Shown in pieces: positions 4,598-64,000 of a stretch of DNA of 64,000 nucleotides. The notes beneath the pieces were generated by a model, which saw only the letters and a list, made by a program, of their open reading frames with translations, was not told the DNA's origin and did no database searches. A program made the position numbers and the translations under genes. Source of the stretch: a virus (lineage: Duplodnaviria; Heunggongvirae; Uroviricota; Caudoviricetes); the IMG/VR virus record IMGVR_UViG_2617270980_000003. One strand, 5' to 3'. Every line of letters begins with the position of its first letter. The first letter of the stretch is position 1.

Positions 4598-6685
4598 TCA
4601 GGCCAGCGGATCACTTTCTTTTAATTTCGCTTCGAGCAGTTGCAATCCCCGCTGGAAATTACGCTCGTATTCTTCATCAGGTTCATCGTCAGCGACCGGT
4701 TGCTGAACGGTCACCGTATTACCCACAGGGCGGTATATGTTTTCCAGCCAGGGCTCCTGCGGCTTGTGCTCCAGCACGTTGACAACCTCATCCTCGGCAT
4801 CACGGATTTTTTCCTCTGCGCGTTTACGCATGCCTTTAAGGCGCTGCTGCTGTTTGTAGTATTCCGCGCTGACAGGGAAGGCTTCGCGTTTATTGCCGTC
4901 CCATACCGCCTCGCAAATCACGCTGCCATCCGGGCGGCGCACGGTAATTCGTTCGGCATCATGAATGTCATAGCTGATAAGTACCTTACGGCCATGCTCG
5001 TCACGCAGCTCGGGCGCGTAGTAAATATTATTCAGCCAGCGTATTTCACAGCGTCTTACAGGGCGCTCCACCATCGGCCGGAACATATCCCGCAGTTCAA
5101 CATCGGACAGCCATTCAATTTCCGTGTCCTCTTCCGCCAGGCGTTTTTTTCTGAACTCCGCCGGGCTGTAATGTTTACCGTTCGGCTTCATGGGTAATTC
5201 ATCGTGCGGCCGGTTGTTGTACCACTCAACACCGTCACGAATGGCATCAATCAGTTCAGACCAGGACGGTAAATCACGCATCGCTGACTGCTGCCGGGCG
5301 TTCAGCCGTTTGCCCTGTTGCAGGGCACTGAATGCCGAGCGTAAATCGCGGTTGGTTTTACGTAACGTCTCGCGATCTGCTCCTTTCCCGAAATAGGTGC
5401 GGTATTTACGGGCTATGCGCATCGGTAATGTGCGGTTAAGCCGTTCGATAATGCCCCGTCCCTGCGGATTACCGGCAATCCCTGTCGGGTGATTAATCCC
5501 CAGTCGTGGCAGTATCCCCACAATCTCCTTATCCAGGACGTCGGCGGTTTCCCCGGAGCCATTATCCGAGTAATACAGAAACGGTTTGCCATGATGGCGA
5601 ATACCGTGCTGTATGGCACCGGCTACGGCGAAAACATTTTCAGCCAGGTCAAGGCTCCAGCCCACCACAAAGCGCGTGCCACCGTCGATAACAAAGGTCA
5701 CTTCCGGTGCGAATGGCCGCCCGTGAACCGGGTGCGCGCATTTCAGCTTCATGCCGTGACCGTCACCAATCCAGACATAATTCACCGGCATTTTTGACCA
5801 GTCGCGGCGCGTGAATCCCTCAAGCTGGCGGTATTCACTGCCGGTAACCCGTCCTTTTTGTTTCACCACTTCCGGCAGTTTCTTCATTGCGCGGCGAATG
5901 GTGTCATAAGACGGCATGATATCGAGCATATAAGGCTCATCAGCGTGCCGGTGCTGCCATTCGGCAACAAAATCCTCGTAAGCCTCGGTCATTGGTCGGC
6001 CGTTTGACTGGCGATACTGCGCCAGAAATTCGGGCAACCAGTTAATATCTTCGGCTTTTATTTCCTGGCGTTTACCTGGTGCCAGCAAAAGCAGGCGTTC
6101 AGCAGCGTTCTGTGCCTTATTAAAGGCCGCAATCCAGCGTTTCAGCGTGATTTCACTCAACACGCGACTGTTTCCCTTTCTGGCGTTCGCTATCTCAACC
6201 ATTGCCACAATGCGCTCATCCAGTTGCGAGTGTGACAGGCGGTCAACGATGAACCGGATAGCTTTAGCGCAGCTGAAACCGGGTTGTTGCGTGAATTTCA
6301 GCACCTCACTGACGATCGCAATGCGTGCGTCTGCCACCTGGCGCTGGTTTTCAGTCAGGGCATTGAGGCGTTCGACCATCAGTTGTGGTGATCCGCGATA
6401 TGCCTCCACCGCATCAACCACGGCAGACGAGCGTCTGGCCTTTGTCACCACCGGAGCCGGTGATTCATCGGCTTTTTGCGTCATCAGTTGCAGGGCATAA
6501 CGTTCGCGTAATGCCTGCTGTGTCACTTCAGGTAAACAGTCAATGCTGTATTCAAAACCTTTAGCGCCTTTCTTGCGGCGTCTGCTGGTTTCGCTGGTTG
6601 CATACTTCCTGATTGAATAGCGAACGCCTTGCTCCGTTCCCGGCATCCCCGGTAATCCAACCAGTTCTTTGACTGAAGCAAACAT
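4598..6685 (-). CDS. Mu A-like DDE transposase
   Basis: 695 aa; WIGDGH motif in DDE core, ...GSVICEAVWDG... region and acidic C-terminal tail resemble MuA architecture; sits between ner and B. Confidence 0.9.
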   Translation of the reverse strand: MFASVKELVGLPGMPGTEQGVRYSIRKYATSETSRRRKKGAKGFEYSIDCLPEVTQQALRERYALQLMTQKADESPAPVVTKARRSSAVVDAVEAYRGSPQLMVERLNALTENQRQVADARIAIVSEVLKFTQQPGFSCAKAIRFIVDRLSHSQLDERIVAMVEIANARKGNSRVLSEITLKRWIAAFNKAQNAAERLLLLAPGKRQEIKAEDINWLPEFLAQYRQSNGRPMTEAYEDFVAEWQHRHADEPYMLDIMPSYDTIRRAMKKLPEVVKQKGRVTGSEYRQLEGFTRRDWSKMPVNYVWIGDGHGMKLKCAHPVHGRPFAPEVTFVIDGGTRFVVGWSLDLAENVFAVAGAIQHGIRHHGKPFLYYSDNGSGETADVLDKEIVGILPRLGINHPTGIAGNPQGRGIIERLNRTLPMRIARKYRTYFGKGADRETLRKTNRDLRSAFSALQQGKRLNARQQSAMRDLPSWSELIDAIRDGVEWYNNRPHDELPMKPNGKHYSPAEFRKKRLAEEDTEIEWLSDVELRDMFRPMVERPVRRCEIRWLNNIYYAPELRDEHGRKVLISYDIHDAERITVRRPDGSVICEAVWDGNKREAFPVSAEYYKQQQRLKGMRKRAEEKIRDAEDEVVNVLEHKPQEPWLENIYRPVGNTVTVQQPVADDEPDEEYERNFQRGLQLLEAKLKESDPLA

Positions 6686-48307: not shown

Positions 48308-49657
48308 ATGCGATTGACCGCTCCTGTTAAAGCGTTCTCAGATGGTTTTAGTACAGCAGATGACATATTTGGACGTAAAAAACTTCATGACATCATCATG
48401 CGGGTAGCAACAAATGCCCCAGATAAAAGTCTTGTACTTGCGCTCAATGATGAATGGGGTAACGGAAAAACCTCATTTGTAAAAATGATGTCATCAGAAA
48501 TAAATAAAAACCATGCTGACAACTTTGACGTTATTTACTTTGACGCTTTTGAAAATGACTATCAATCAGACCCATTTGTAGCCTTAACATCAAAAATTTA
48601 TTCACTCATAAAAAAAGAAGATGGAAAGCTTAAAAACCTCGGGAAAGAGTTATTATCCATTGGTAAAAAACTAGGCGCGTCATTCGCACTTAATGGTGCA
48701 AAATTTGCCGTAAGCACTTTCACAAGTGGATTAGTCTCAGGTAACGCACTGGAGAAAGCAAGTGATGCCATCAGTGACTCTCTCACATCACCTATTGAAG
48801 AGTACATTGAAGAAAAAATAAAAACGAGCGAGAGTGAGTTAGCAACAATTGAGCAATTTAGAGCATTGCTGACCAAGATTCACACTGAGTGTGGGAAAAA
48901 AATAATATTTATAATTGATGAGCTAGACAGGTCGCGACCTGATTTTTCCCTTGACTTGCTAGAGAAAATAAAACATATATTTTCAGTGGAAGGTTTTGTT
49001 TTCTTACTAGTAGTTAACCGTGAGCAGTTTGAAAAAAGTATAGAGTGTAGATATGGGAGCATAAATACAAGATTATATTTAAATAAATTTATTCATTATT
49101 GGTTTACTCTTCCTAAAAAAAGTATGCTCTCAGTAGGCTGCCGAGCAGGCTATGAACGTTCAACGTTAACACAATATCTCCTGTCGTTAGATCAAGGGAA
49201 TGACATACTGATTCGGAATGGTTCTCTCGTAAAAACCCTCGCGTATCTTCTAGAAATGAATAACTGTTCACTGCGAGAGGCTGAGCGTTGCTATTCAACA
49301 TTCGCAATAATGAACGACCCCAGCGAAGTAAATTCCTACCGACATGAAATATTTCATGTTGCCATCGCACTAGTTGCTTTCTTGAAAATATTCAACCAAT
49401 CCTTACTCATGGAAATATTAAACAAAAAACTGACAGAAGATGAGATATTTAAACGATTATCAATTCCTGTAAACCTTGTCGATGTTTCTGAGATTTATTA
49501 TATTGCAATATTGTTAAAATACCACTTAGCCACCGATGAAGAACTACGTTCCTCTGATATGCTCACTGAGTACGCATTCATGGCTGTAATACCTGGACAA
49601 CGAGTCAAATGGTTTGAAATGATGTATGAGAAGATCGAAGGCTTTGATATTAACTGA
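48308..49657 (+). CDS. KAP-family P-loop NTPase (cargo gene in P2 old/tin hotspot)
   Basis: 449 aa; Walker A NDEWGNGKTSF, Walker B IIFIIDELDRSRPD, hydrophobic stretch between them; AT-rich by eye. Confidence 0.75.
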   Translation: MRLTAPVKAFSDGFSTADDIFGRKKLHDIIMRVATNAPDKSLVLALNDEWGNGKTSFVKMMSSEINKNHADNFDVIYFDAFENDYQSDPFVALTSKIYSLIKKEDGKLKNLGKELLSIGKKLGASFALNGAKFAVSTFTSGLVSGNALEKASDAISDSLTSPIEEYIEEKIKTSESELATIEQFRALLTKIHTECGKKIIFIIDELDRSRPDFSLDLLEKIKHIFSVEGFVFLLVVNREQFEKSIECRYGSINTRLYLNKFIHYWFTLPKKSMLSVGCRAGYERSTLTQYLLSLDQGNDILIRNGSLVKTLAYLLEMNNCSLREAERCYSTFAIMNDPSEVNSYRHEIFHVAIALVAFLKIFNQSLLMEILNKKLTEDEIFKRLSIPVNLVDVSEIYYIAILLKYHLATDEELRSSDMLTEYAFMAVIPGQRVKWFEMMYEKIEGFDIN

Positions 49658-49936: not shown

Positions 49937-51088
49937 ATGTCATCAGAAAAAACAATAGAACGTTTCGTTGCAGCAGATGTTAGCGGTGCAATCTGGTTAC
50001 GATTAAAACGATTAATGAGTGCGCAGCTCTGTAAGAAAATAATAGAAAATAATCATCCGTCATTGCAAGAGGATGTATTGATTAAAAAATCCATTGGAAT
50101 GTCCTCCGCAATACGAAGTGCAATCGGATATTGGGAGACTGAAAATGGCGGACTCAATTCAAAAATTTTATCCAGATATTATGCATTATTACAGATAAGC
50201 TTAGCTGAACAAATATCATCAGGGGATCCTAACGACGATTTAAAAAATGTTCAAAAGCATACGGTTTCAGGTCATGGGCTATTCACACAATCTGTTGAAA
50301 ATGAAACATTCCCAGACAATATAAAAATAGGCTGTCTTAAAAGTGGACATTTTTATTCATATGCAAAGCATATAGGAATTGATATCAAACAGTATGCAAC
50401 AGAAAGACGTCCAAAAAAAGATGAAGATTTAGACCCATCACGCACCTATTCTTTAACTGATTTATTAAAACGAATTCCAGAATTAAGACCGCTTTTACAA
50501 GAAACTTTCGGTGAAGATCCACTTTCATTCCAAATTGGACAAGCAAGTAGAAACATGCTCTTAAGATCAAGGAATCAGTCACTCGGTGGCCTATCGCGTC
50601 CTAAACCAGAGTTCTCAGGTTTTACATATGCCGCAATTTATCCCAAAGGTAGCGATGTAACAGCAGAAGAGCTTAATTCTTACAACATTGGAATAAAAAA
50701 CATTGAAATTGAGTCAGAAGAAAACCTCACAAAATATGACCAACCATATTTTGTAGGAGAAGTCCATCACCCTGAAGATGAGCTATGGTGGGATTATGTC
50801 ACGACACACAAATCTGGTTATTGTGGAACGAGTGTAATTGTCCCATTTTGGGGAACTCAAGATCCCTTTGTATTACACTTAGTCGTATTATATACATTAA
50901 GCATTATAGTCAGGTATCTCCCTGACACTTGGTATGAGATTGAGCATGGCAAACTTGATTATATTAATTCCCTTTTGGAAAATTATTTAGCTATTTTTGA
51001 TAGTGTACTGCCTAAACTTGCGGTTGAAAGATTAACGAAAGTTCATTTGGTAGTAACAGCACCCGATAGCATGAATTCCCCTATCTAA
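49937..51088 (+). CDS. Hypothetical protein (second cargo gene in hotspot), no recognisable domain
   Basis: 383-aa ORF, AT-rich, own upstream region; C-terminal hydrophobic segment PFVLHLVVLYTLSIIVRYL. Confidence 0.6.
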   Translation: MSSEKTIERFVAADVSGAIWLRLKRLMSAQLCKKIIENNHPSLQEDVLIKKSIGMSSAIRSAIGYWETENGGLNSKILSRYYALLQISLAEQISSGDPNDDLKNVQKHTVSGHGLFTQSVENETFPDNIKIGCLKSGHFYSYAKHIGIDIKQYATERRPKKDEDLDPSRTYSLTDLLKRIPELRPLLQETFGEDPLSFQIGQASRNMLLRSRNQSLGGLSRPKPEFSGFTYAAIYPKGSDVTAEELNSYNIGIKNIEIESEENLTKYDQPYFVGEVHHPEDELWWDYVTTHKSGYCGTSVIVPFWGTQDPFVLHLVVLYTLSIIVRYLPDTWYEIEHGKLDYINSLLENYLAIFDSVLPKLAVERLTKVHLVVTAPDSMNSPI

Positions 51089-51157: not shown

Positions 51158-51469
51158 TCAATCATCATCTTGGTCATCCCCAGTGTCGCGAACGCATGAT
51201 TTTGACTCAAAGTATTTTTTTTCCGCAGCGGTAATCAGGGCTTGGTGTTCAGGGAAATCACGAAACACGTCTACTGCGGGCCATTCAATTTTCGTCACAA
51301 CCAACTTAGGCCTACTTTCCACCTCAGCTTCATCCTGGCTGATATAATGACTTTTTGACTCACGTTCCTCATGCGAAGATTCTCGATAATAGAGCCAATT
51401 TTGATAGTCAGCTTCCCGTTCATAATCATCAAAGTACTTGCCCACGCTTCCCCCCATTAATGAGCGCAA
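51158..51469 (-). CDS. Hypothetical acidic small protein downstream of A (overlaps A 3' end)
   Basis: 103-aa ORF with C-terminal ...DTGDDQDDD; may be spurious. Confidence 0.3.
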   Translation of the reverse strand: MRSLMGGSVGKYFDDYEREADYQNWLYYRESSHEERESKSHYISQDEAEVESRPKLVVTKIEWPAVDVFRDFPEHQALITAAEKKYFESKSCVRDTGDDQDDD

Positions 51470-54008
51470 CCCTTAATCTTTCAAGGAGTACATCATTCTC
51501 CCGCTTCCTTTCCGCTTTAACTCTCTGCTTAACTTCATCGCGGCGCTGTTCGACTACTTCTACCCCCTTCAGCTTCATAGTACAAGCCAAGCAGAGCTTT
51601 TCATCGCCATAGGTTATATCATCCTGATTTAACTCCGCATTACAATCTCTAGCCCTACAGTAAATTGCTTTGGTCTTTTCTACCAGATAGCCATCCTTCA
51701 GATAAACATGTCGATCATCAAAAGAAAGCAAAGCCCCGCGACGAAGGGCATCAATATCAGGCTTGGACTTAATTCCCCAAGAGGAAAGCTGATAGCGAAG
51801 GTGAGCAGTCATTGGTGTGGCCTCCACAACACTGCTCCGCCGGGTTGCTGATTCATCGCGGATAGCCGCCGCCACTTTCATGTAATTTTCAGCGCGCTCC
51901 TGATCTGCGCTATCGCAATCTGAAGCGGCAATAGCATTGGCAAGCGACTCAAACACATCAGCAGGTGATTTTTGCTGTTTTGGTTTGTAATTTCTGATGC
52001 TCTCATTAAGCCGTTTTTTCTGCTCTCGGCTCATTTGACCAATTTCATATTGTTCTGGATCTTCAGGCGGTGGATTTACCGCCCCTTGATTTGTATGTTT
52101 TTTGTACTCAGTACAGTTATTGACACGAGTCCAAGAGGGCGCGGGCGCGCCCTTAAGGTCAAAACCTCGATCGGCGGCGTCGTCTGCTTTTGGCTTCTTT
52201 TTGACAATGCGATAAGAATGGAGGCGGGTTTCAACCGGAGGAACGGTCGATGCTGGCATGACCACCCCTTTAATAACCCTCTGAAACTCGCCGTAACTGC
52301 TCGGCTCATCCCGATATTGATACCAGGCGCGCAACACAAGCCTATTCCGTGTCACGAACGGACCACCCTGCAAGGTGATGTAGTCCTGCCAGTTCCCGGC
52401 ATGGGCGGCGCGGTGTAACTCACCGAAAACCGGACTGATTCGATCTGCCATTTCCTGATTCTTCAGGCGGCGTAACTCACGCCAGACGGACACCGGCGCG
52501 CCACCCAGAAACTGAAACTGACGAATGCCCCAGCATGAAGCCCAGGCAGTAGCGTGTTTTGCTGTCTCCTTCAGTGGGCGTCCGCTTTCGTCGTCGCTTT
52601 CACCATCCAGTGCATAACCGTCGATGTTTTTAGATATGTACTTAACGACATATCCAGTAGCGCTCCCCAAAGCCGGATCTATCGGCTTAAGTTCAAAGCG
52701 GGGCTGTTTGCCATTCTTGCCGGTGAGTTCATCAGCATCTTCACGCGTGGCGTAGTCTTCCATCACTTCCAGCAATTCGCCGGTATGCTCTGGGGCTGTG
52801 AACAGAAGGCCATGCCAATGCGGAGTACCATCATGGTGAGACTCTGCAACACGAAGGCCAAAAACAGAAATCTCACGGCGCGCAAGCTCCGCGCGGATCA
52901 GTTGCCAGACGCGATTAAGGTAGTTTTGTGTCTTGCGGGGGCTGGCTCCGTTCCATTTGCGGTTACGATGCCCGAACGCTGTAAAGGCATGATATTTAGA
53001 CGGCGCGGTCAGGGTGAAGAAACTGCCGGCAAACCCGCTTTCCGTTGCCACCTTCTCAAATCCACCAATGCGCGTCATCAACTCAACACGGCGCTTTTCA
53101 GGATTAGAAATGCTCTTATCAATCTGCTCTATCAGCGAAATGCGCTCACCAGTTACCTGATCTTCAAGTTCAAGGCGGCTCATAATTGCGCGGCTACGCT
53201 TACGGCGTGAATCCCACTGCGTAACGTGGTGTTTGCTGCAATACGGTGAAACATCGCGGCGCACGTCACCATAGGCAATGTGCAAATGCTCGCGCCAGCG
53301 GCGGGCGTACTTGCGCAGGAGGCGTGACCAAAAGCGATCATGAAGGGTTTTTTGTATTGCTGCTGTCGCTTCATCAAGCGCCATCCGGCGCTTCTTCGCC
53401 CAGGGCGGCACTAACCTGAAATACGCAATCAGCCTGGAGCCTTCACGCAGCATGCGTTTGGTGTATTCAGTATCGTTGAACACACTTGCACCCTCGCTCA
53501 CTTCAGCCAAAACAGCATTGGCATAAATGGCTATGTCCTGAGCCAGCAAATCAATATCTTCATCCGTGCAATCCGCCAGATTATTAAAGCGGCGGACAAG
53601 TTCACGCAGATTTTCAAACGAGTGAAACAGTGGGTTTAGTTCAGAGAAAATGATCCACTCATTGTCTTCTGGCACAGCGTATTGTTTCGTGACGTTTCTG
53701 ACGTGTGGAAGCTCGCGCTTAACGATGTCGCGCAACTTCAGTTTTGCGATATGGCGCCCTTTATCCTCGTGAACGGTATTTATGTAAGAGGCAATGCGGC
53801 GGCGAATGAAGATAGGCAACGGCTTGAGGGGATTTTCAACCCAGGCGAAAAACTCCTGCTCTTGACCCAATTCATATAGATCAACAGCGGGAGCCTTATC
53901 AACGAAGATGGCGGCTTTTGGCTCATTCCAGGCGTAAGCATACCGGGCTGGCTCGATAGAGCCTCCCGGCATGTTGGTCATGCTATGAGAGCGGCGAAAT
54001 GAAGACAT
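51429..54008 (-). CDS. A: Rolling-circle replication initiator (P2 gpA-like HUH endonuclease)
   Basis: 859 aa; HUH motif ...HHDGTPHWHGLLF... and Tyr motif ...GYVVKYISKN...; early-operon position. Confidence 0.85.
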   Translation of the reverse strand: MSSFRRSHSMTNMPGGSIEPARYAYAWNEPKAAIFVDKAPAVDLYELGQEQEFFAWVENPLKPLPIFIRRRIASYINTVHEDKGRHIAKLKLRDIVKRELPHVRNVTKQYAVPEDNEWIIFSELNPLFHSFENLRELVRRFNNLADCTDEDIDLLAQDIAIYANAVLAEVSEGASVFNDTEYTKRMLREGSRLIAYFRLVPPWAKKRRMALDEATAAIQKTLHDRFWSRLLRKYARRWREHLHIAYGDVRRDVSPYCSKHHVTQWDSRRKRSRAIMSRLELEDQVTGERISLIEQIDKSISNPEKRRVELMTRIGGFEKVATESGFAGSFFTLTAPSKYHAFTAFGHRNRKWNGASPRKTQNYLNRVWQLIRAELARREISVFGLRVAESHHDGTPHWHGLLFTAPEHTGELLEVMEDYATREDADELTGKNGKQPRFELKPIDPALGSATGYVVKYISKNIDGYALDGESDDESGRPLKETAKHATAWASCWGIRQFQFLGGAPVSVWRELRRLKNQEMADRISPVFGELHRAAHAGNWQDYITLQGGPFVTRNRLVLRAWYQYRDEPSSYGEFQRVIKGVVMPASTVPPVETRLHSYRIVKKKPKADDAADRGFDLKGAPAPSWTRVNNCTEYKKHTNQGAVNPPPEDPEQYEIGQMSREQKKRLNESIRNYKPKQQKSPADVFESLANAIAASDCDSADQERAENYMKVAAAIRDESATRRSSVVEATPMTAHLRYQLSSWGIKSKPDIDALRRGALLSFDDRHVYLKDGYLVEKTKAIYCRARDCNAELNQDDITYGDEKLCLACTMKLKGVEVVEQRRDEVKQRVKAERKRENDVLLERLRVALINGGKRGQVL

Positions 54009-54190
54009 TAAGCCGCCTCAGATGAAAACCGTGTCGCCTGGCTGTATCGCTCTTGCGTCACGTTCAGAGTAGGTGATCAGGTCTGTATTGCTGTAACCAC
54101 CCTCGCCCAGAACTTCAACGCGAGTGATCCAATAATTACGGCGCGGGAGAACATCCAGCACCTTTGTCACTACAACCTCAACGGTATTCA

Positions 54191-54655
54191 TCAGAATGGC
54201 GCTCCATCATCAAAATCGAACGGGGGAGGCGTCGTCTTCCATGTCACCGGTTTACCTGGTTTACATTTCCGCGCGGCCTTGACTGTTGGATAGTTGAGGG
54301 AATGCCGGACAACTTCATCAGTCCACAAATCGTGCGCCTCGAAATCAACGCGCCAGCAACCTTTGCTAATGCAGCGGCGTGAAAAAACGCGCGTAACAAC
54401 GGCGCAAACCGTATGACTTTCAGGCTCGGCTTCAGCGGCAGGATCAAAGCCAAGAAAAACAAGCTCACTACTGTGAGACTTAATCAGGGGATCAAGAACC
54501 GCCCCGAAAGACTTACGAAGCGTCTTTTCAACATCAGGGCCAGCCAAAAGACCTGCATAACCAGCGTGAATTAATGCAGCCTCTTTTGCCTTTTCTAACG
54601 CCGCTATCGCGCCTTGCAGATAGCTCACGTGATCGTTAATGGACGGAGTAATCAT
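54191..54655 (-). CDS. Hypothetical protein (154 aa from ATG 54655) with SSB C-terminus-like tail
   Basis: Start ATG overlaps dam stop (TGATG); C-terminus ...PPPFDFDDGAPF resembles the SSB tip D-F-D-D-D-I-P-F. Confidence 0.5.
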   Translation of the reverse strand: MITPSINDHVSYLQGAIAALEKAKEAALIHAGYAGLLAGPDVEKTLRKSFGAVLDPLIKSHSSELVFLGFDPAAEAEPESHTVCAVVTRVFSRRCISKGCWRVDFEAHDLWTDEVVRHSLNYPTVKAARKCKPGKPVTWKTTPPPFDFDDGAPF

Positions 54656-55647
54656 CAGAAGTCCTCTGCTGCTGTGTATGAATCGCAGATCTCGCAGTTG
54701 CGACAGCAAAAGGTATCGCTTCCAGATTCATAGCCATCGCCAGCAACGGCAGGGCAACAGGTAGCGCAATAACCACGCCCTACTTGCCCGCACTCGTCAC
54801 AGACGAGCAGCGAACCAATCACCTCACCCGCGAGATTGCGTGTTTTTGCTCCCACAGAACGCCGGACTTCGAATGAGTTAAGGGTGAACGGGTAGTAAAT
54901 TTGGCGCGTTTCCGGGGTGTCACTGCCGGAAATAACAGAGGGTATTTTTGCCTGGTTGTAGAGGCGTGAAAGCATCGCAACCAGGGCGCGATGGTCTTCA
55001 TCAGTAAAGGGCTTACCGTATGCAGTAAAATTTGCAGTCTCGCTGGCTGGCAGGTATGGAGGATCGCAATAAACCACGCAGCCTGAATGCCCGATAGATA
55101 GAGGAATTGTTTCTCTGAAATCACCATGCAGGAACATTGCCCCTTTGTCCCAAGCCCTTTTTGCAAAATGCTGAATCTCAGCCACAGGGAAAATTGGCTT
55201 CTTACGAAAACCAAAAGGAACGTTGAATTCATTCTTTAAATTAACACGGTAAACACCGTTGTAGCAGTGACGATTCAAATAAAGAAATAGCGCTGCATAT
55301 TTAACTAATTCATCATTTGTATATTGCTCTCTATGCCCTGCGTACTCGCGATTAAAAATATTGAAGTCATCACGATTTATGTAATATGCATCTTCATTAT
55401 TACCAGTCAAAAACAAGGCGGATGCATAAGTTAAAAGCGCTTCTGTGTTGCGCTTAACCATAGAGAAGAAATTAATTAGGGCTGCATTGCTATCACACAG
55501 AATATAGGTTTTATAGTCTGTATTCAGAAAGACGCTACCACTACCCACAAAAGGCTCAACGAGGCATTCACCCTGCGGCAGAGCATCCAGTACATGAGGC
55601 ATCGCGCGAGACTTGCCGCCAGCCCAGATCAGAGGGGAGTTAATCAC
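54655..55647 (-). CDS. dam: Dam-like DNA N6-adenine methyltransferase with Cys-rich C-terminal extension; start revised to GTG 55647
   Basis: ...LIWAGGKSRAM... and DPPY motif (VVYCDPPYLP); C-terminal ...CDECGQVGRGYCATCC...CCRNCEICD; GTG 55647 preceded by AAGGAG, track ATG 55719 has no SD. Confidence 0.75.
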   Translation of the reverse strand: MINSPLIWAGGKSRAMPHVLDALPQGECLVEPFVGSGSVFLNTDYKTYILCDSNAALINFFSMVKRNTEALLTYASALFLTGNNEDAYYINRDDFNIFNREYAGHREQYTNDELVKYAALFLYLNRHCYNGVYRVNLKNEFNVPFGFRKKPIFPVAEIQHFAKRAWDKGAMFLHGDFRETIPLSIGHSGCVVYCDPPYLPASETANFTAYGKPFTDEDHRALVAMLSRLYNQAKIPSVISGSDTPETRQIYYPFTLNSFEVRRSVGAKTRNLAGEVIGSLLVCDECGQVGRGYCATCCPAVAGDGYESGSDTFCCRNCEICDSYTAAEDF

Positions 55648-56367: not shown

Positions 56368-56643
56368 TTATGAACGATCGCCCAATCCTAACCACATCAA
56401 CCACCCCTCTCTGATTTCCTTCGGACGGCTTTCATATGCTAGTTTCATGCCGTTGTTCCATGCCGGAAGATATACCCAGTATTCTCCCGCACGCCCAGAC
56501 GTGGATTGCGGATCGGTCATTTCAATAACGGGCAACTTCCCTTTTTCGATCATTCCCTTCACGGCTGCCGGTGTTTTACCGATGAGTTTTGCAAACTCCT
56601 GGTAAGGAACCGCGTCAGTTGCACTTACAAGCTGTCTGTTCAT
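56368..56643 (-). CDS. cox: Cox-like regulator/excisionase (P2 Cox position)
   Basis: 91 aa, divergent from C repressor gene, first gene of early operon. Confidence 0.65.
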   Translation of the reverse strand: MNRQLVSATDAVPYQEFAKLIGKTPAAVKGMIEKGKLPVIEMTDPQSTSGRAGEYWVYLPAWNNGMKLAYESRPKEIREGWLMWLGLGDRS

Positions 56644-56763: not shown

Positions 56764-57063
56764 ATGTCAACCCCGATATTTGAAAAGATAAAACTCATCC
56801 GTGAATCAGAAAGGTTAAACAAGAGGCAATTCAGCGAGTTAACGGGCATTGCCTATAGCACGTTGGGGGGCTACGAATCTGGAGTTAAAAGTCCCGGCGT
56901 AGAAGCCATAATGAAAATGCTACAGCACCCCAGATTTAGTAAATACACCCTGTGGTTTATGACCGATCAAATTGCTCCTGAAGCCGGTCAGATTGCACCG
57001 GCACTCGCACACTTTGGGCAAGATGTAACAACATCGCAGCACTCAGACCAAAAGACTGGTTAA
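56764..57063 (+). CDS. C: Immunity repressor C (P2 C-like)
   Basis: 99 aa; ...FSKYTLWFMTDQIAPEAGQIAPALAHFGQ... matches P2 C as recalled. Confidence 0.85.
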   Translation: MSTPIFEKIKLIRESERLNKRQFSELTGIAYSTLGGYESGVKSPGVEAIMKMLQHPRFSKYTLWFMTDQIAPEAGQIAPALAHFGQDVTTSQHSDQKTG

Positions 57064-57208: not shown

Positions 57209-58222
57209 ATGACAATTAAGAAACTCGATGATGGTCGTTATGAAGTGGACATTAGACCTAGCGGACGCAACGGAAAACGCATCCGCAGGAAGTTTGACAA
57301 GAAAAGTGAGGCAGTGGCCTTTGAGAAGCACACGCAATACAACCACCACAACAAGGATTGGTTAGCGAAGCCGACCGATAAAAGGCAACTTTCCGAATTG
57401 ATTCAAATCTGGTGGGAACTCAAGGCAAAGCACGAGGAATGGGGAAAGTACAATCGGGGAAAGGTCGAGAAATTCGCGGCGATAACCGGTGATCCGTGCG
57501 CGTTTCAGATTACAAAGACGGTAATTAGCCAGTATGTTGCAGCTCGGCGAGGTGAAGGCGTTAAGCCATCTACCATCAATCGGGATCTGACATGCATCAG
57601 CGGAATGTTTACCGCTCTGATTGAGGCCGAGCTATACCATGGCGAACACCCGATAAGAGGACGTAAACGACTCAAAGAGGAGAAGCCCGAAACGGGCTAT
57701 TTAACCAACGAGGAAATTACCGCCCTTTTCTCGCGGCTCGATGGTGACAATAAAAAAATAGCGGTTCTTTGCCTAAGCACGGGCGCTAGGTGGGGTGAAG
57801 CGGCAAAACTGAAAGCCGAGCACATCATCCATAATCGGGTGACGTTTGTTAAAACCAAAACGAACAAACCCCGAACGGTGCCAGTATCGGCAGAAGTATG
57901 TGAAATACTCACCAGCGTGAAGCGCGGCTTCCTGTTCCCGAATGCCGATTACACGTTGTTCCGGCAGGTACTGAAAGAGGTAAAGCCCGACCTGCCAGCA
58001 GGACAGGCAACCCATGCTCTACGGCACAGTTTTGCTACGCATTTCATGATTAACGGAGGAAGCATTATCACGCTACAAAGGATACTCGGTCACGCGCGCA
58101 TAGAGCAGACAATGGTCTACGCGCACTTCGCGCCAGAGTATTTACAAGATGCCGTAACACTCAATCCGTTAAAGGGCGGCATTGAACCCGAAAACGTCCA
58201 CACAGTGTCCACACTCGGGTGA
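57209..58222 (+). CDS. int: Tyrosine integrase (P2 Int-like)
   Basis: 337 aa; C-terminal catalytic region ...HALRHSFATHFMINGGSIITLQRILGHARIEQTMVYAHF... Confidence 0.9.
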   Translation: MTIKKLDDGRYEVDIRPSGRNGKRIRRKFDKKSEAVAFEKHTQYNHHNKDWLAKPTDKRQLSELIQIWWELKAKHEEWGKYNRGKVEKFAAITGDPCAFQITKTVISQYVAARRGEGVKPSTINRDLTCISGMFTALIEAELYHGEHPIRGRKRLKEEKPETGYLTNEEITALFSRLDGDNKKIAVLCLSTGARWGEAAKLKAEHIIHNRVTFVKTKTNKPRTVPVSAEVCEILTSVKRGFLFPNADYTLFRQVLKEVKPDLPAGQATHALRHSFATHFMINGGSIITLQRILGHARIEQTMVYAHFAPEYLQDAVTLNPLKGGIEPENVHTVSTLG

Positions 58223-58526
58223 TTTATAGCGGCTTTCAGTGGCTTTATGTGGTGCTCAAACCCGCATTACACCGCTGAAAGCCCGTATATCAAAGGGCTA
58301 CCAACGCCCCCGATGGAGCCTTCATTTTCACTTTCTTAAATCTAACGATAGACGGCTAACATTTAAGTATTGTGAAATATTATCAAATGTAATCATCATT
58401 GATTTACAAAAGATACATTTTGCCCCGAAAGGATTCCTGTCAGAAACATCAAAAGATGATGTTCTATACTGAGAACCATGGCAACACGGGCATCTAAAGT
58501 GAATATGGTTTGTAATATTTTCTACC

Positions 58527-58742
58527 TCAAAGTGCCACAACATGAACAGCCGCGGGGCCTTTAGGTCCGTTCTCAATACCAAATTCGACTTCCTGATTCT
58601 CAGTTAACGTTTTGAAATCGTTGCTCTGAATAGCTGAGAAATGGACAAACACATCTTTGCTACCATCTTTCGGCGTGATGAAACCAAAACCTTTTTCAGG
58701 GTTAAACCATTTCACTAAACCAGTCATTTTGTTAGACATCAT
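58527..58742 (-). CDS. cspI: Cold-shock protein, CspA family (CspI-like prophage moron)
   Basis: [38 protein letters not shown]... with RNP1/RNP2 motifs; sits downstream of Rz as cspI does in Qin. Confidence 0.75.
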
Positions 58743-59102
58743 TATTACCTTTTGAAGAAGTTAGCCCTTGGGCAGAATGGTCCGAAAAAAAATATCAGAG
58801 AGAAAAACCAACAAGGAAATCTCAAGAGGTACAAATAATAAAATTATAACAATGACTGCTTCAGATAATTTTGTAACAAACCAGAACACCATTAACGCAT
58901 GATTAACCAACCATAGCAAGGATTACTTTTGTAAAGAAAAACACACGAATGAAACAATAGCTTTATTTATTAATAAAACGTGTCATTCTGTCTAATGACC
59001 TTTTATCTTACCCTTAAGATTTCAAGGATTTTGACTCATGGAAGAGTCCTTTTTATTTAAATTTCACATTCAGCGCTAAAAATAATCCGATTTAATATTA
59101 AT

Positions 59103-60130
<1,028 letters not shown>

Positions 60131-60451
60131 GGATATTTATCAGGATTTATCGGCTTCAAATCCCCGGATATGTTAAATCTTACCTCACCAGTGATGGGCA
60201 CTGGCGGGAGGGGGGTGTCAATCTGATAAACACAAAGGCGACTATGGATTACACAAAACTACCTAAACAAACTTTTGCTGATTTAATCGCACTCAGGCAA
60301 GCAGTCGTAGCTCTAATCAACTTGTTGCCGGAGAAGGAAAAGGAATTAGTTAAAGCGCTTCTTAACAGAACTGCCGCCGATTTTTCATCATATCCACTGA
60401 CAGATGACCTTGCGGACCTTCCTGAATTAATTGCAGCGTCCGCCAATAAGC

Positions 60452-61003
60452 TTACTGAAGAGATTTACCCTCCTCAAAAATCTTCACAAAATTCCTGCGA
60501 GTAACTTCAATGCAATAATCGTAAAACGCCGCAAACTGCTCATCGCGGCGTTTTTTTTCATCTTCAGAAGGAATCAGCACCGACAATTTTTTATTCAGAT
60601 CAGCGACGCTGCCCTCCAGTTTTTCAATGGGCGATTCAATATCATCTTTTTCTGACCGCAATGCCGTCGGTGGCGTCTTCAGAGAACCAGTAATTCTTCC
60701 CGGTAGCTTTCCTTTGTAGGTTATCCACACATTCTGCGCCTCTAAAATTATGGGGCGCTTTTCCGGCGACTGCTCATCCCCTTCACATAACCCGGCAGCA
60801 ACATCCAGGAAGACCTGTCTGATGCTCCTTCTGGCTGCTGCCTCATAAAACTCCAGCGCGGCACCTTCAACACGGTCCAGCGAGATGTCCAGGTCAAAAA
60901 TTTCACCGTCAAAGTGTTTTTTGTCCCGTAAGGCTACAGTTACCGCCACTTTATTCTCAAAATTGCGAACTCCTTTCACAACCAGTTCATAGTCTTGAGT
61001 CAT
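60452..61003 (-). CDS. Hypothetical protein inserted between holin and endolysin
   Basis: ATG 61003 lies 5 nt after the holin stop; occupies the ydfR position of Qin but is longer; track start 61024 is TTG. Confidence 0.45.
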   Translation of the reverse strand: MTQDYELVVKGVRNFENKVAVTVALRDKKHFDGEIFDLDISLDRVEGAALEFYEAAARRSIRQVFLDVAAGLCEGDEQSPEKRPIILEAQNVWITYKGKLPGRITGSLKTPPTALRSEKDDIESPIEKLEGSVADLNKKLSVLIPSEDEKKRRDEQFAAFYDYCIEVTRRNFVKIFEEGKSLQ

Positions 61004-61007
61004 TGGA

Positions 61008-61223
61008 TTACTCTCTTCTCGCAACCTTACGCCTGTCTTCTTTAATCTTGAAATAAAGGTTTGTCAGATACGTCAGCATGCCAAATACCAGACTACCCAA
61101 TACACCTATTGCCGCCCACTGTGAGGGCGTGACTTTATCGAGCAACTGTAAAAACCAGTAGCCAGCACTGCCTGCAGAGGTGCTGTAGGCGATGCCCGTT
61201 GTTAACTTATCCATGGATTTCAT
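61008..61223 (-). CDS. Class II holin / pinholin (S21/EssD-like)
   Basis: From ATG 61223: [71 protein letters not shown] (71 aa), near-identical to phage-21-type holin as recalled. Confidence 0.8.
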
Positions 61224-61413
61224 AGCCTCACCTCCGCAGATAACGGATGGTGTACACGGTTTGGTTCGAAGAAGGAAAGAAGTTACATTAGCGTAAGGCC
61301 CGAACATCTATTCAAAAAGAAAAACGCCAGCAATTATTCTGGCGTAGCTAAAAATATCGTATAATCTTACACTTCAAAAAATAACTTTATAAAATGCCAT
61401 CACATCATATCTT

Positions 61414-62136
61414 CTAAGAAAATCTTGATAAATATTGGTGCGGAGGCACACCAAAATATCCTCTAAAAACACTTACAAAATATGATGCATTGTCATACCC
61501 GCATATTCCCGCCACCTTGCCGACAGTATGGTTACTGTAGATCAATAATCTTTGCGCCATCATCATTCGTTCTTCAAGAATTAATTTACTAAACGATAAT
61601 CCTTCGTCTTTTAATTTTCTTTTTAACAAACTCTCGCTCATATATAATCTTGAAGATATATCACAAAGTCTCCATGACGCTGAGATATCCGAGTGAATAA
61701 TAGCCTTAACTTTACAACCTAAGCTATTAAGACTTCCGAACAAAAAACTTTGCACTATTTTCTCTGAAGATAAGACAGCAAGACATGCAAGTGATATTTG
61801 ATTTCTAACTACATCCACGGTTTTGCTATCACAATTCAAGCATGCAACCAAGTTCCTTAACAATGAAAAATCTTCACATTCTACTATCAAGTATGACGGA
61901 TAAAACCTTCTTACAGAAAAAGGTGAGAGTGTGTAGTTTTTAAAGAAATCATTAACTGTTTTCTCCTCAATATCTACGATCATTAGATGATCTGTATTTG
62001 ACGAAAAAAGATCTTTTAAATTGTATTCAATGAGGACAGCATTTCCTTTTTTAAACAAAATATCTTCTTTACCAATTCGGACACCAAACGAGTTCAACAC
62101 CAAAATGATAGAACATATGTATGGCATATTATCCAC
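61414..62136 (-). CDS. AraC-family transcriptional regulator
   Basis: C-terminal AraC HTH ...GKVAGICGYDNASYFVSVFRGYFGVPPHQY; AT-rich gene with long AT-rich upstream region. Confidence 0.7.
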   Translation of the reverse strand: MDNMPYICSIILVLNSFGVRIGKEDILFKKGNAVLIEYNLKDLFSSNTDHLMIVDIEEKTVNDFFKNYTLSPFSVRRFYPSYLIVECEDFSLLRNLVACLNCDSKTVDVVRNQISLACLAVLSSEKIVQSFLFGSLNSLGCKVKAIIHSDISASWRLCDISSRLYMSESLLKRKLKDEGLSFSKLILEERMMMAQRLLIYSNHTVGKVAGICGYDNASYFVSVFRGYFGVPPHQYLSRFS

Positions 62137-62533
62137 CTGATATCATTGGGGTTACACCAGGTAAGTATAGGTGGAAAATCAATATTCGCCAGTTCAACAA
62201 TAAGGAAAATCTCATTGCATCACAACTATAAAACCATGTGTTTAACTCACAAAAAACAAATCATTAAACTAATCTGTTATATTATAATAGCTGCGTGCAA
62301 TAATAATATTATATGCTCTTTATATTCACTTGAAATATCTTCATATAAAAACAGATTGAATAAAATCTTTTGGGGCTGGTATGTTTACCAACATTAAATT
62401 GCATCTCAATGTTTTCTTTAGCGTGAACAGGATTTTTATAAAAACTGACACTATGAGCATCATAGCGTAGTTTTTACGATTGTAAATATCCTGCATACAG
62501 GAACTCATCACTTTCAGATGATATCGCATACAG

Positions 62534-63493
62534 TTAATTCACCATCAGTCTTAGAGCCAGTTCTTCCGGATAGGGATCGAAGTAATTCTGTGTAAGCAAG
62601 TAATCATTAGGATACTCACCCAGATAATGCTTCAGCAGAGTCAACGGCGCAAGAAGAGGCAATGTGCCAAAGCGATAGTTAAGTATAACCTCGCTCAACT
62701 CTTTACGCTGGCGTGTACTTAAGTAATTACTAAAATACCCCTGTATATGCATCAGCACATTCGTGTGATTTTTACGTGATGCTGGTTTTCTGAGAATCGC
62801 CATCAGATTATCACGATACACCTCAAAGTATGATTCAAGGTCCGCCCACTCGTGTATTGCAGCCACAAATGGTCCCATATCTTTATAGCCTGCCTGGCTA
62901 TGCGCCAACAACTGAAGCTTATAACGACTATGAAAAGCTAATAACTCTCTTCTTGATAATTTCTCCTTGTAAAGGTGATTGAGCTCATGCAAAGCAAAAA
63001 CTCTTTCAATAAAATTCTCACGAAGCACTGGATCATGTAATCGCCCATCCTCTTCAACCGGTAGCCAGGAAAACTTTTCCATCAAAGTGCTCGTAAATAG
63101 TCCCACTCCATCTTTACGACCTCGATTACCATTTTCATCATAGACACGCACGCGCTCCATGCCACAGCTGGGAGATTTAGCACAAACCACAAACCCCGAT
63201 ACATCCTTTAATTTGTCCATATAAGAACGACTAAACTCTGTCATTCTCTCTGTCACATCCTCATTCTGGTCGTGGCTGAAACACATCCGTATATTTCCTT
63301 GCTTCGAGCGCACAAGTCGTAGAGCAGGACGCGGAACTGGCAGCCCTATAGCCATTTCCGGACATACTGGTCTGAATGTTACCCATTCCACTAATTTGTC
63401 CATTAAAAAGTCATCTCTTTTGTGACCACCATCAAAACGAACAGCAGAACCGCCCAAACAACCGCTGATCCCAATCACAGGTTTTTTTATCAT
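62534..63493 (-). CDS. DUF523/DUF1722-family protein (YbgA-like)
   Basis: 319 aa; N-terminal Cys-containing ...GISGCLGGSAVRFDGGHK...CPEM...; family assignment from memory. Confidence 0.5.
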   Translation of the reverse strand: MIKKPVIGISGCLGGSAVRFDGGHKRDDFLMDKLVEWVTFRPVCPEMAIGLPVPRPALRLVRSKQGNIRMCFSHDQNEDVTERMTEFSRSYMDKLKDVSGFVVCAKSPSCGMERVRVYDENGNRGRKDGVGLFTSTLMEKFSWLPVEEDGRLHDPVLRENFIERVFALHELNHLYKEKLSRRELLAFHSRYKLQLLAHSQAGYKDMGPFVAAIHEWADLESYFEVYRDNLMAILRKPASRKNHTNVLMHIQGYFSNYLSTRQRKELSEVILNYRFGTLPLLAPLTLLKHYLGEYPNDYLLTQNYFDPYPEELALRLMVN

Positions 63494-63685
63494 TTCCTCC
63501 CCCTTGACTAATTCATTAACACATAAACTTTGTAGTGCACGGACTAAATTGCCTTTCTGGCTTCATCACTGACAATTTTTCTGTTATTGACTATTCCTAA
63601 TATAGTAGGAAAGTTCTTTAAGTGATCGGTCGTACTCATCTATCTTTCATACTTACTCTCAACTATCAAAAGTACAGGATTTATT

Positions 63686-64000
63686 ATGAAGTTATGGCCT
63701 GTGTTGACTGGCATTGCACTCTCTTTCACTCTTATAGCATGTAAGGCCCCGACACCACCTAAAGGTGTGCAGCCGATTACAAATTTTGACGCCAACCGCT
63801 ACCTCGGAAAATGGTATGAAATAGCTCGCCTCGAGAACTGGTTCGAACGTGGTCTGGAACAGGTCAGCGCTACTTATGAAAAACGGAACGACGGAGGGAT
63901 TCGCGTACTTAACCGTGGATACGATCCAACGAAAAACAAATGGAGCGAGAGCGAAGGTAAAGCATACTTTACTGGAGATACTAAAACTGCAGCGTTGAAA
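63686..64000 (+). CDS. blc: Outer-membrane lipocalin Blc-like, 5' part (continues beyond window); not in ORF track
   Basis: ATG 63686: MKLWPVLTGIALSFTLIACKAPTPPKGV...FDANRYLGKWYEIARLENWFERGLEQVSATY..., lipobox plus lipocalin motif, similar to E. coli Blc as recalled. Confidence 0.7.
   Translation, partial: MKLWPVLTGIALSFTLIACKAPTPPKGVQPITNFDANRYLGKWYEIARLENWFERGLEQVSATYEKRNDGGIRVLNRGYDPTKNKWSESEGKAYFTGDTKTAALK

Follow-up and report, generated by a model that had tools for sequence, protein, structure and literature searches.

A small protein with an SSB-tip-like C-terminus encoded between dam and gpA in P2-like prophages

The stretch of DNA analysed here, called the window below, consists of 64,000 nucleotides of a Caudoviricetes virus record (IMGVR_UViG_2617270980_000003). 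On its minus strand lies an open reading frame that runs from the ATG at 54655 to the stop codon at 54193..54191 (54191..54655, stop included) and encodes a protein of 154 residues with the C-terminal end ...PPPFDFDDGAPF, which the translation of the frame gives also as ...KTTPPPFDFDDGAPF. The protein is predicted to be composed of a helical hairpin, an OB-like barrel and an SSB-tip-like tail. It had been described, in an earlier note on this DNA, as a 154-residue protein that is translationally coupled to dam through a TGATG overlap, and both the translation and the sequence of the junction bear this out: the stop codon TGA of dam (54657..54655) and the ATG of the frame have their A in common, and a Shine-Dalgarno sequence, GAGGA, is found at 54666..54662 before the start. 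The start was placed at the ATG at 54655 and not at an upstream TTG on the basis of the aligned N-termini of the homologues. At its other end, the stop codon of the frame overlaps, in a second TGATG, the ATG of the next frame, which encodes 57 residues (54018..54191, minus strand) and is located 9 nt upstream of gpA.

The surroundings are those of a P2-like prophage. The gene upstream, dam (54655..55647, minus strand), encodes a D12-class N6-adenine methyltransferase with a Cys-rich C-terminal extension (PF02086, E 3e-55); gene callers start it at the GTG at 55647, which gives 330 residues, and the longest open reading frame reaches 55719. Downstream is gpA (51429..54008, minus strand), which encodes the replication initiator, a nicking endonuclease (PF05840, E 7e-95; phrog_91). 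Further genes typical of these surroundings encode Cox (56368..56643, minus strand), the C-type repressor (56764..57063, plus strand) and the integrase (57209..58222, plus strand).

The gene for the 154-residue protein is bounded by two copies of a 9-nt direct repeat, TTCTGATGA. The left copy (54652..54660, minus strand) comprises the last Phe codon of dam, its stop codon and the overlapping ATG, and the right copy (54188..54196, minus strand) comprises the last Phe codon of the 154-residue gene, its stop codon and the ATG of the 57-residue frame. Alignment of the junctions showed that the prophage of strain ES1 has the empty site, in which the left flank, one copy of the repeat and the right flank follow one another. 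In the closest relatives, the prophages of ES1 and AMSCJX04, dam is coupled directly to the 57-residue frame. When 5,426 complete E. coli genomes were searched by blastn, only the flanks were found, and the 154-residue gene was present in none of them. The 9-nt repeats and the empty site in ES1 therefore show that the 154-residue frame is a real accessory gene of the P2-like prophage, which recombination at the translational-coupling junction has added or removed. Junctions of translational coupling appear to serve as the joints at which gene cassettes recombine. The label of early-operon protein, which the earlier note had used, needs to be amended accordingly: the gene is not fixed in that operon, as the closest related E. 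coli prophages are without it.

The 57-residue neighbour is coupled in translation to the genes on either side of it, matches phrog_8110, a family of unknown function, and is a paralogue of the OB-like domain of the 154-residue protein that has neither the tail nor the hairpin. BLASTP of the two proteins against each other found no similarity, but the comparison of profiles was positive: the profile of the OB domain aligns with that of the 57-residue family at a probability of 96.8% (hhalign, E 2e-10). The HMM of the OB domain also matches the 57-residue orthologues in two of the loci that we examined (L013 and L002).

The 154-residue protein was matched by no model in Pfam (E <= 0.01), PHROGs, NCBIfam or PADLOC, and only two close clusters of it were found among 5.8 billion proteins. 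An exhaustive phmmer search returned homologues at 46-50% identity, and the two profile searches that followed gave together 40 cluster representatives with the C-terminal domain, of which 38 are intact and two are frameshift-like. Every representative is annotated as hypothetical; the genera in which they occur are Escherichia, Salmonella, Citrobacter, Kluyvera, Pantoea, Erwinia, Edwardsiella, Obesumbacterium and Yokenella. The two frameshift-like sequences (P0063 and P0065, 113 residues, of the stand-alone type described below) depart from the family sequence within the barrel and have thereby lost the tip; they are probably pseudogenes or sequencing errors. Among 50,697 phage records, tblastn found no match for the window protein or for one stand-alone member, and only one Klebsiella record was matched by other members of the family. 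Among species-representative genomes, a single locus with the family was found. A profile search of PDB sequences gave no significant match to the family, and a structure search of BFVD returned only uncharacterised small phage proteins.

We examined the genetic context of the family in ~25 loci on ~14 distinct backbones of P2-like prophages in Enterobacterales. The family gene lies between dam and gpA in all of them, usually with overlapping stop and start codons. Dam is encoded upstream and gpA downstream in every locus; the two proteins are themselves quite divergent from one locus to another. That the family gene is placed between dam and gpA with overlapping codons fits co-expression with replication functions. 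The helicase loader of P2, gpB, was detected neither in any family-bearing prophage nor in the closest E. coli relatives that lack the gene. Our literature search found nothing relevant on the 154-residue family or on P2-like lagging-strand factors.

To describe the architecture of the protein, we used an AlphaFold model built from a 25-sequence alignment (mean pLDDT 82). In this model, residues 4-67 (54455..54646, minus strand) form an N-terminal hairpin of two helices, 4-38 and 40-67, with pLDDT of about 86-92, and residues 81-141 (54233..54415, minus strand) form a small OB-like beta-barrel with pLDDT of about 89-95. The two modules are joined by a linker of low confidence. The C-terminal residues 144-154 are predicted to be disordered, with pLDDT below 50; in a model of the domain only, the tail has pLDDT of 53-54. 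The linker between the barrel and the tip consists of ~5 residues (142-146), compared with ~55 in E. coli SSB, so that the reach of the tail would be limited. In the window protein, residues 81-143 have a net charge of +7 and a pI of 9.8. The charge of the barrel differs within the family: it is +6 to +7 in the fused forms, which have both hairpin and barrel, versus -1 to -5 in the stand-alone forms, whose barrels are neutral to acidic. Because the stand-alone barrels are acidic, binding of ssDNA should not be assumed for the whole family, and as a family-wide property it was not supported.

The last eight residues of the window protein, DFDDGAPF (residues 147-154; 54194..54217, minus strand), form its extreme C-terminus and lie within the tail that is predicted to be disordered. 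The earlier note had drawn attention to the resemblance of this end to the C-terminal tip of SSB, and we agree: E. coli K-12 SSB ends in ...EPPMDFDDDIPF, and when DFDDGAPF is compared with the DFDDDIPF of SSB, six of the eight residues are identical, in the same register and at a free C-terminus. Among the 752 stop-to-stop open reading frames of at least 40 residues in all six frames of the whole window, the 154-residue frame is the only one that ends in Pro-Phe. By our own estimate, made from typical residue frequencies and not the output of a tool, a C-terminal [DE]FD[DE]x[ILVA]PF is expected by chance at ~1e-8 per protein.

Contacts of the SSB C-terminal peptide (SSB-Ct) with the chi subunit involve P176, F177, the free carboxylate and D172-D174; the Pro-Phe sits in a hydrophobic pocket and the upstream aspartates lie on its basic rim, and the addition of one Gly after F177 abolished the binding of chi (PMC3045619). 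More than 14 partners of SSB-Ct (DDDIPF) have been reported (PMC5872125).

The case made in the earlier note depended on the motif being conserved among homologues, and this comparison leaves the case standing. All 38 intact cluster representatives, which share 21-99% identity with the barrel-plus-tail segment of the window protein, terminate in [L/V/A]-Pro-Phe, and the last nine residues of each contain two to five acidic residues and no basic one. In an alignment of 39 sequences, only five columns are invariant, namely V103, A107 and G134 in the core of the barrel, and P153 and F154 at the C-terminus. Among the 30 distinct tails, position -3 is occupied by Leu (21), Val (8) or Ala (1); position -4 is Glu, Asp or Gly in all but one tail, which has Trp; position -5 is Asp or Glu in 27 and position -6 is Asp in 25. 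The features of the SSB-Ct motif, that is Pro-Phe at a free C-terminus, a hydrophobic residue at -3, acidic residues from -4 to -6 and a disordered setting, are found here, and the consensus of the family, [D/E]-F-D-[D/E]-[E/G/D]-[L/V]-P-F, can be set against D-F-D-D-D-I-P-F of SSB. The tips range from DFDDDLPF, which occurs in some members and is identical to E. coli SSB in seven of eight residues, to GGELPF, and in the most distant members the tail is reduced to acidic residues followed by ELPF. The tip of the window protein is the least canonical of the family: its residues at -4 and -3 are Gly and Ala, compared with Asp and Ile in SSB.

The residues just before the tip, from -12 to -9, are hypervariable, and among members the codons vary synonymously with the amino acids unchanged. 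The invariant Pro-Phe, the hypervariable residues that precede it and the synonymous codon changes mark the tail as a selected short linear motif. Outside the core of the fold, no feature of the family is conserved more strongly than the tip, and its conserved positions coincide with those that were shown experimentally to contact SSB partners. A recent transfer of the tail as DNA from the host ssb gene was considered and rejected, because the synonymous sites differ and the likeness is constrained at the level of amino acids only.

Could the resemblance nevertheless be incidental, with the tail being kept for folding, for stability or as a proteolytic signal, or with the frame having a function unrelated to SSB? 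In favour of this, the protein has no match in Pfam, PHROGs, NCBIfam, PADLOC or PDB sequences, and a cautionary precedent exists in DdrB of Deinococcus, whose purported SSB-like tail is dispensable for radioresistance (PMC3834827). DdrB, a cellular stress protein, differs in fold; since its motif is dispensable, caution is needed in drawing conclusions from a tail here as well. We regard an incidental resemblance as highly improbable. Although the tail is outside the predicted fold, its last two residues show the same invariance as the core of the barrel over the whole range of identity given above. The sole intact relatives without a tip belong to the distinct 57-residue lineage, and the two truncated variants are frameshift-like. 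Moreover, to our knowledge the tail of the family resembles neither an ssrA-type degron nor the beta-clamp-binding motif QLxLF, and both identities were rejected on the grounds of the motif.

Host-like tips on SSBs of phages and plasmids are well known, and the question is how the present family differs from these. Bacterial SSB (PF00436) and, by prediction, the window protein have the same layout, in which an OB-type barrel is followed by a disordered segment; both have an acidic tip and an end of hydrophobic residue-Pro-Phe. In sequence, however, the likeness is confined to the last eight residues (hhalign against E. coli SSB, probability 10.7%) and PF00436 does not match. The barrel has ~60 residues in the family versus ~110 in SSB, the linker is shorter as described above, and the N-terminal helical hairpin of the window protein is additional to the layout of SSB. 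PriB, a dimeric OB-fold primosome protein, is without an SSB-like tail (PMC8509808), and the profile search of PDB sequences found no similarity between it and the family.

A closer parallel is Bas52_0087, an atypical phage SSB-like protein that triggers DRT10, has a disordered C-terminus with an FDDDIPF tip and has been proposed to form an interface with SSB partners such as SbcB/ExoI (bioRxiv 10.64898/2026.04.29.721553). It shares with the family that it is phage-encoded and non-canonical and that a disordered C-terminus carries a host-like tip; an OB-type barrel is, in the family, a prediction. We compared the two by description only: Bas52_0087, from a coliphage of the BASEL collection, is a much larger protein with two OB domains (escape substitutions are at residues 252 and 351), whereas members of the family have about 90-154 residues, one minimal barrel with or without the hairpin, and are confined to the interval between dam and gpA. 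In our search of the literature, no non-SSB mimic of SSB-Ct was found to be described in phages. What sets the present family apart is an SSB tip on a protein without sequence relation to SSB, on a minimal barrel with a near-absent linker and a separable hairpin, and restricted to the dam-gpA interval; conceptually, it is not unprecedented.

A comparison with P2 gpB and P2 Orf83 had also been suggested by the earlier note. These are, like the family, small proteins of the P2-type early operon, and Orf83 overlaps the start of gpA as do the stand-alone members of the family. No relation was found: homology was rejected at an hhalign probability of 0.1% for each, with no match to DUF5405, the family of Orf83. 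Neither gpB nor Orf83 has an SSB-like tail (Orf83 and Orf81 were checked), and no homologue of either is present in the family-bearing loci.

The hairpin and the barrel with its tip are separable modules. Stand-alone hairpin genes of 66-73 residues (P0009, P0020, P0032) are found elsewhere directly after dam. In some Salmonella prophages the order is split into dam, a 67-residue hairpin gene, a 91-residue barrel-plus-tip gene that ends in HDFDDDLPF, and gpA. Other prophages have the barrel-plus-tip gene alone, with 87-95 residues and often overlapping the start of gpA, and still others have the hairpin gene alone. In one Klebsiella locus (L013; CP052639.1, 4986..5180 and 6039..6404), the hairpin gene is directly upstream of dam. 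Downstream of dam, the same locus contains an unannotated open reading frame that looks barrel-like by eye and whose end, ...RSRHSDEHH, lacks an SSB-like tip; should it belong to the family, it would be a natural tip-less variant. Four Salmonella loci show a further arrangement: L006 (8456..8946), and likewise L007, L008 and L016, encode a fused protein of 151 residues and a second, 88-residue barrel-plus-tip frame (DCTDDELPF) immediately before gpA, giving two tip-bearing proteins per operon, together with a ParE-like gene of 75 residues.

One may ask whether the partner of the tail is encoded by the phage itself. The tail could bind gpA or Dam, or it could bind the basic barrel of its own protein as an auto-inhibitory switch, and its likeness to SSB-Ct would then be convergent, as in gp2.5 of phage T7. 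T7 gp2.5 is an OB-fold protein with an acidic tail and a terminal Phe that mediates contacts among the proteins of the replication fork; its tail binds the phage-encoded polymerase and helicase, and is without Pro-Phe and the DFDDD register. In line with a phage-encoded partner, the family is always between dam and gpA, its stand-alone forms overlap the start of gpA, the hairpin always adjoins dam, and the Dam next to it, wherever intact, has the Cys-rich C-terminal extension. The more distant members retain only acidic residues and ELPF. An interaction of the SSB tail with its own OB domain is known, and the basic barrel and acidic tail of the fused forms resemble it. Nevertheless, we consider a phage-encoded or intramolecular partner quite improbable. 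While the tail of gp2.5 serves phage partners, the tail of the family copies the motif of the host, and the match goes beyond an acidic tail with a Phe: Pro-Phe, the hydrophobic residue at -3 and the D-F-D-D register, up to a complete DFDDDLPF, are the features that the host pockets read (PMC3045619). Furthermore, auto-inhibition based on charge could not be general, because the stand-alone barrels are acidic.

A side observation concerns the C-terminal extension of the phage Dam (54655..54800 of the window, minus strand), which is Cys-rich and zinc-ribbon-like (C..C..GGG.CP.CG). The extension is also found in L003, L007, L009, L011, L013 and L015-L019, and it often ends in an acidic residue followed by a terminal Phe (...AAEDF, ...ADEVLF, ...NGVEAF, ...DGAEGF). 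It accompanies the hairpin domain in all cases but the Erwinia locus L014, in which the C-terminus of Dam is degenerate, and it is absent where only a stand-alone barrel-plus-tip gene follows dam. This co-occurrence may hint that the hairpin binds Dam.

Taken as a whole, we find that the best reading is that the protein is an adaptor that brings SSB-partner proteins of the host to the replication intermediates of the phage, a reading that we hold tentatively and at somewhat less than even confidence. We argue that the body of the protein would be anchored at the ssDNA displaced after nicking by gpA, or at gpA itself, and that the hairpin would probably serve for self-association or for binding of a partner. 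The tail could dock into the SSB-Ct pockets of genome-maintenance proteins of the host, which offer a hydrophobic pocket for the Pro-Phe and the carboxylate and a basic rim. The anchored protein could thereby recruit one or more SSB partners, for which PriA, PriC, DnaG and the chi subunit of Pol III are candidates. All three elements of this reading are inferred: binding of SSB partners by the tip, binding of ssDNA or gpA by the body, and an outcome of recruitment and not of competition.

An adaptor is favoured by the tight coupling to gpA and dam, by the folded body and by the absence of a gpB-type helicase loader from these prophages. It is further supported by a tip that keeps the published binding determinants of SSB-Ct, by a disordered tail with a variable flank, as is usual for a short linear docking motif, and with synonymous codon changes, and by a body that is OB-like and, in the fused forms, basic. 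Bas52_0087, with its FDDDIPF tip and its link to SbcB/ExoI, provides a precedent. We count against it that the tip of the window protein is the least canonical of the family, that a linker of ~5 residues replaces the ~55 of SSB, and that fused and stand-alone barrels differ in charge. The gene is also dispensable for this type of phage, as the closest E. coli relatives lack the gene and lack gpB too, and the tail of DdrB is, as noted, not needed for radioresistance.

The same tail could act by competition, as the earlier note had suggested when it spoke of competing with SSB, and this is the main rival of an adaptor. The protein would then be a decoy or competitive inhibitor, whose tail fills the SSB-Ct pockets of enzymes of the host, so that these are withheld from SSB-coated DNA, with ExoI/SbcB, RecJ, RecQ, RecG and UDG as candidate targets. 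As a result, ssDNA intermediates of the phage would be protected, or a host defence that depends on these enzymes would be altered. Conservation of the tip is expected equally for a decoy and for an adaptor. The sporadic, cassette-like and rare occurrence of the gene is what one would expect of an accessory or counter-defence gene, the acidic barrels of the stand-alone forms are unlikely to bind DNA, and a very short linker suits a soluble plug. In addition, phage SSB-like proteins and ExoI have already been tied to the triggering of defence (bioRxiv 10.64898/2026.04.29.721553; bioRxiv 10.1101/2022.08.27.505566). On the other hand, a stoichiometric role in replication accounts better for the coupling to gpA and dam, and for a simple plug the conserved, folded OB domain and the hairpin would be superfluous. 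A decoy would have to outcompete thousands of SSB tails per cell, clustered as four per tetramer, and we saw no sign of very high expression here. No PADLOC model matched the protein, although PADLOC covers defence systems and not counter-defence proteins. We judge a decoy to be possible, if on the unlikely side.

We may put forward a wider proposal, which we think unlikely as it stands: mini OB-fold/SSB-tip proteins would be either a dedicated device that links the rolling-circle initiator gpA to the SSB interactome of the host, for instance to PriA or PriC with DnaG for helicase loading and priming of the displaced strand in P2-like phages without gpB, or a counter-defence plug by which nucleases that depend on SSB-Ct, ExoI for example, are blinded. 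If they were such a plug, the triggering of ssDNA-sensing defence systems would be altered. If either were true, the family would be the first case of SSB-Ct mimicry by a non-SSB scaffold to which a role in temperate-phage biology can be assigned.

SSB-Ct is the central docking peptide of genome maintenance in bacteria and has been proposed as a target for antibiotics. Natural copies of it on another scaffold show how mobile elements exploit the SSB-Ct hub, and the family would provide compact ligands of SSB-Ct pockets that have been tested by evolution. An adaptor or decoy role, if true, would be notable. The family is also relevant to recent work in which phage SSB-like proteins and ExoI were found to govern the triggering of anti-phage systems. 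It adds to the P2-like early operon an unannotated module of dam, hairpin, OB-tip and gpA. The set of natural variants, with its range of tips, fused and split forms, tailed and tail-less forms and an isogenic empty site, makes the question directly testable.

Some observations on the relatives and on the rest of the prophage may be added. In two loci (L009, 5424..6137; L013, 4196..4753), a 3'-5' exonuclease of the DnaQ/RNase T type is encoded just upstream of dam; ExoI, a classic client of SSB-Ct, belongs to the same DnaQ/RNase T-type exonuclease superfamily. In the window, a KAP-family NTPase (48308..49657, plus strand; PADLOC candidate defence family PDC-S20, E 1e-74) and a YaaC-like protein (49937..51088, plus strand; PF14175) are encoded between gpA and the portal gene, an interval known as a variable hotspot of P2. 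Together the two are probably defence cargo carried by the prophage. At the other side, from about 58300 to 64000, remnants of the Qin cryptic prophage (rrrQ lysozyme, rzpQ, ydfR and cold-shock-like genes) abut the P2-like prophage and are 99.8% identical to many E. coli chromosomes. Since these remnants adjoin it, the P2-like element appears to have been inserted next to or within an older prophage.
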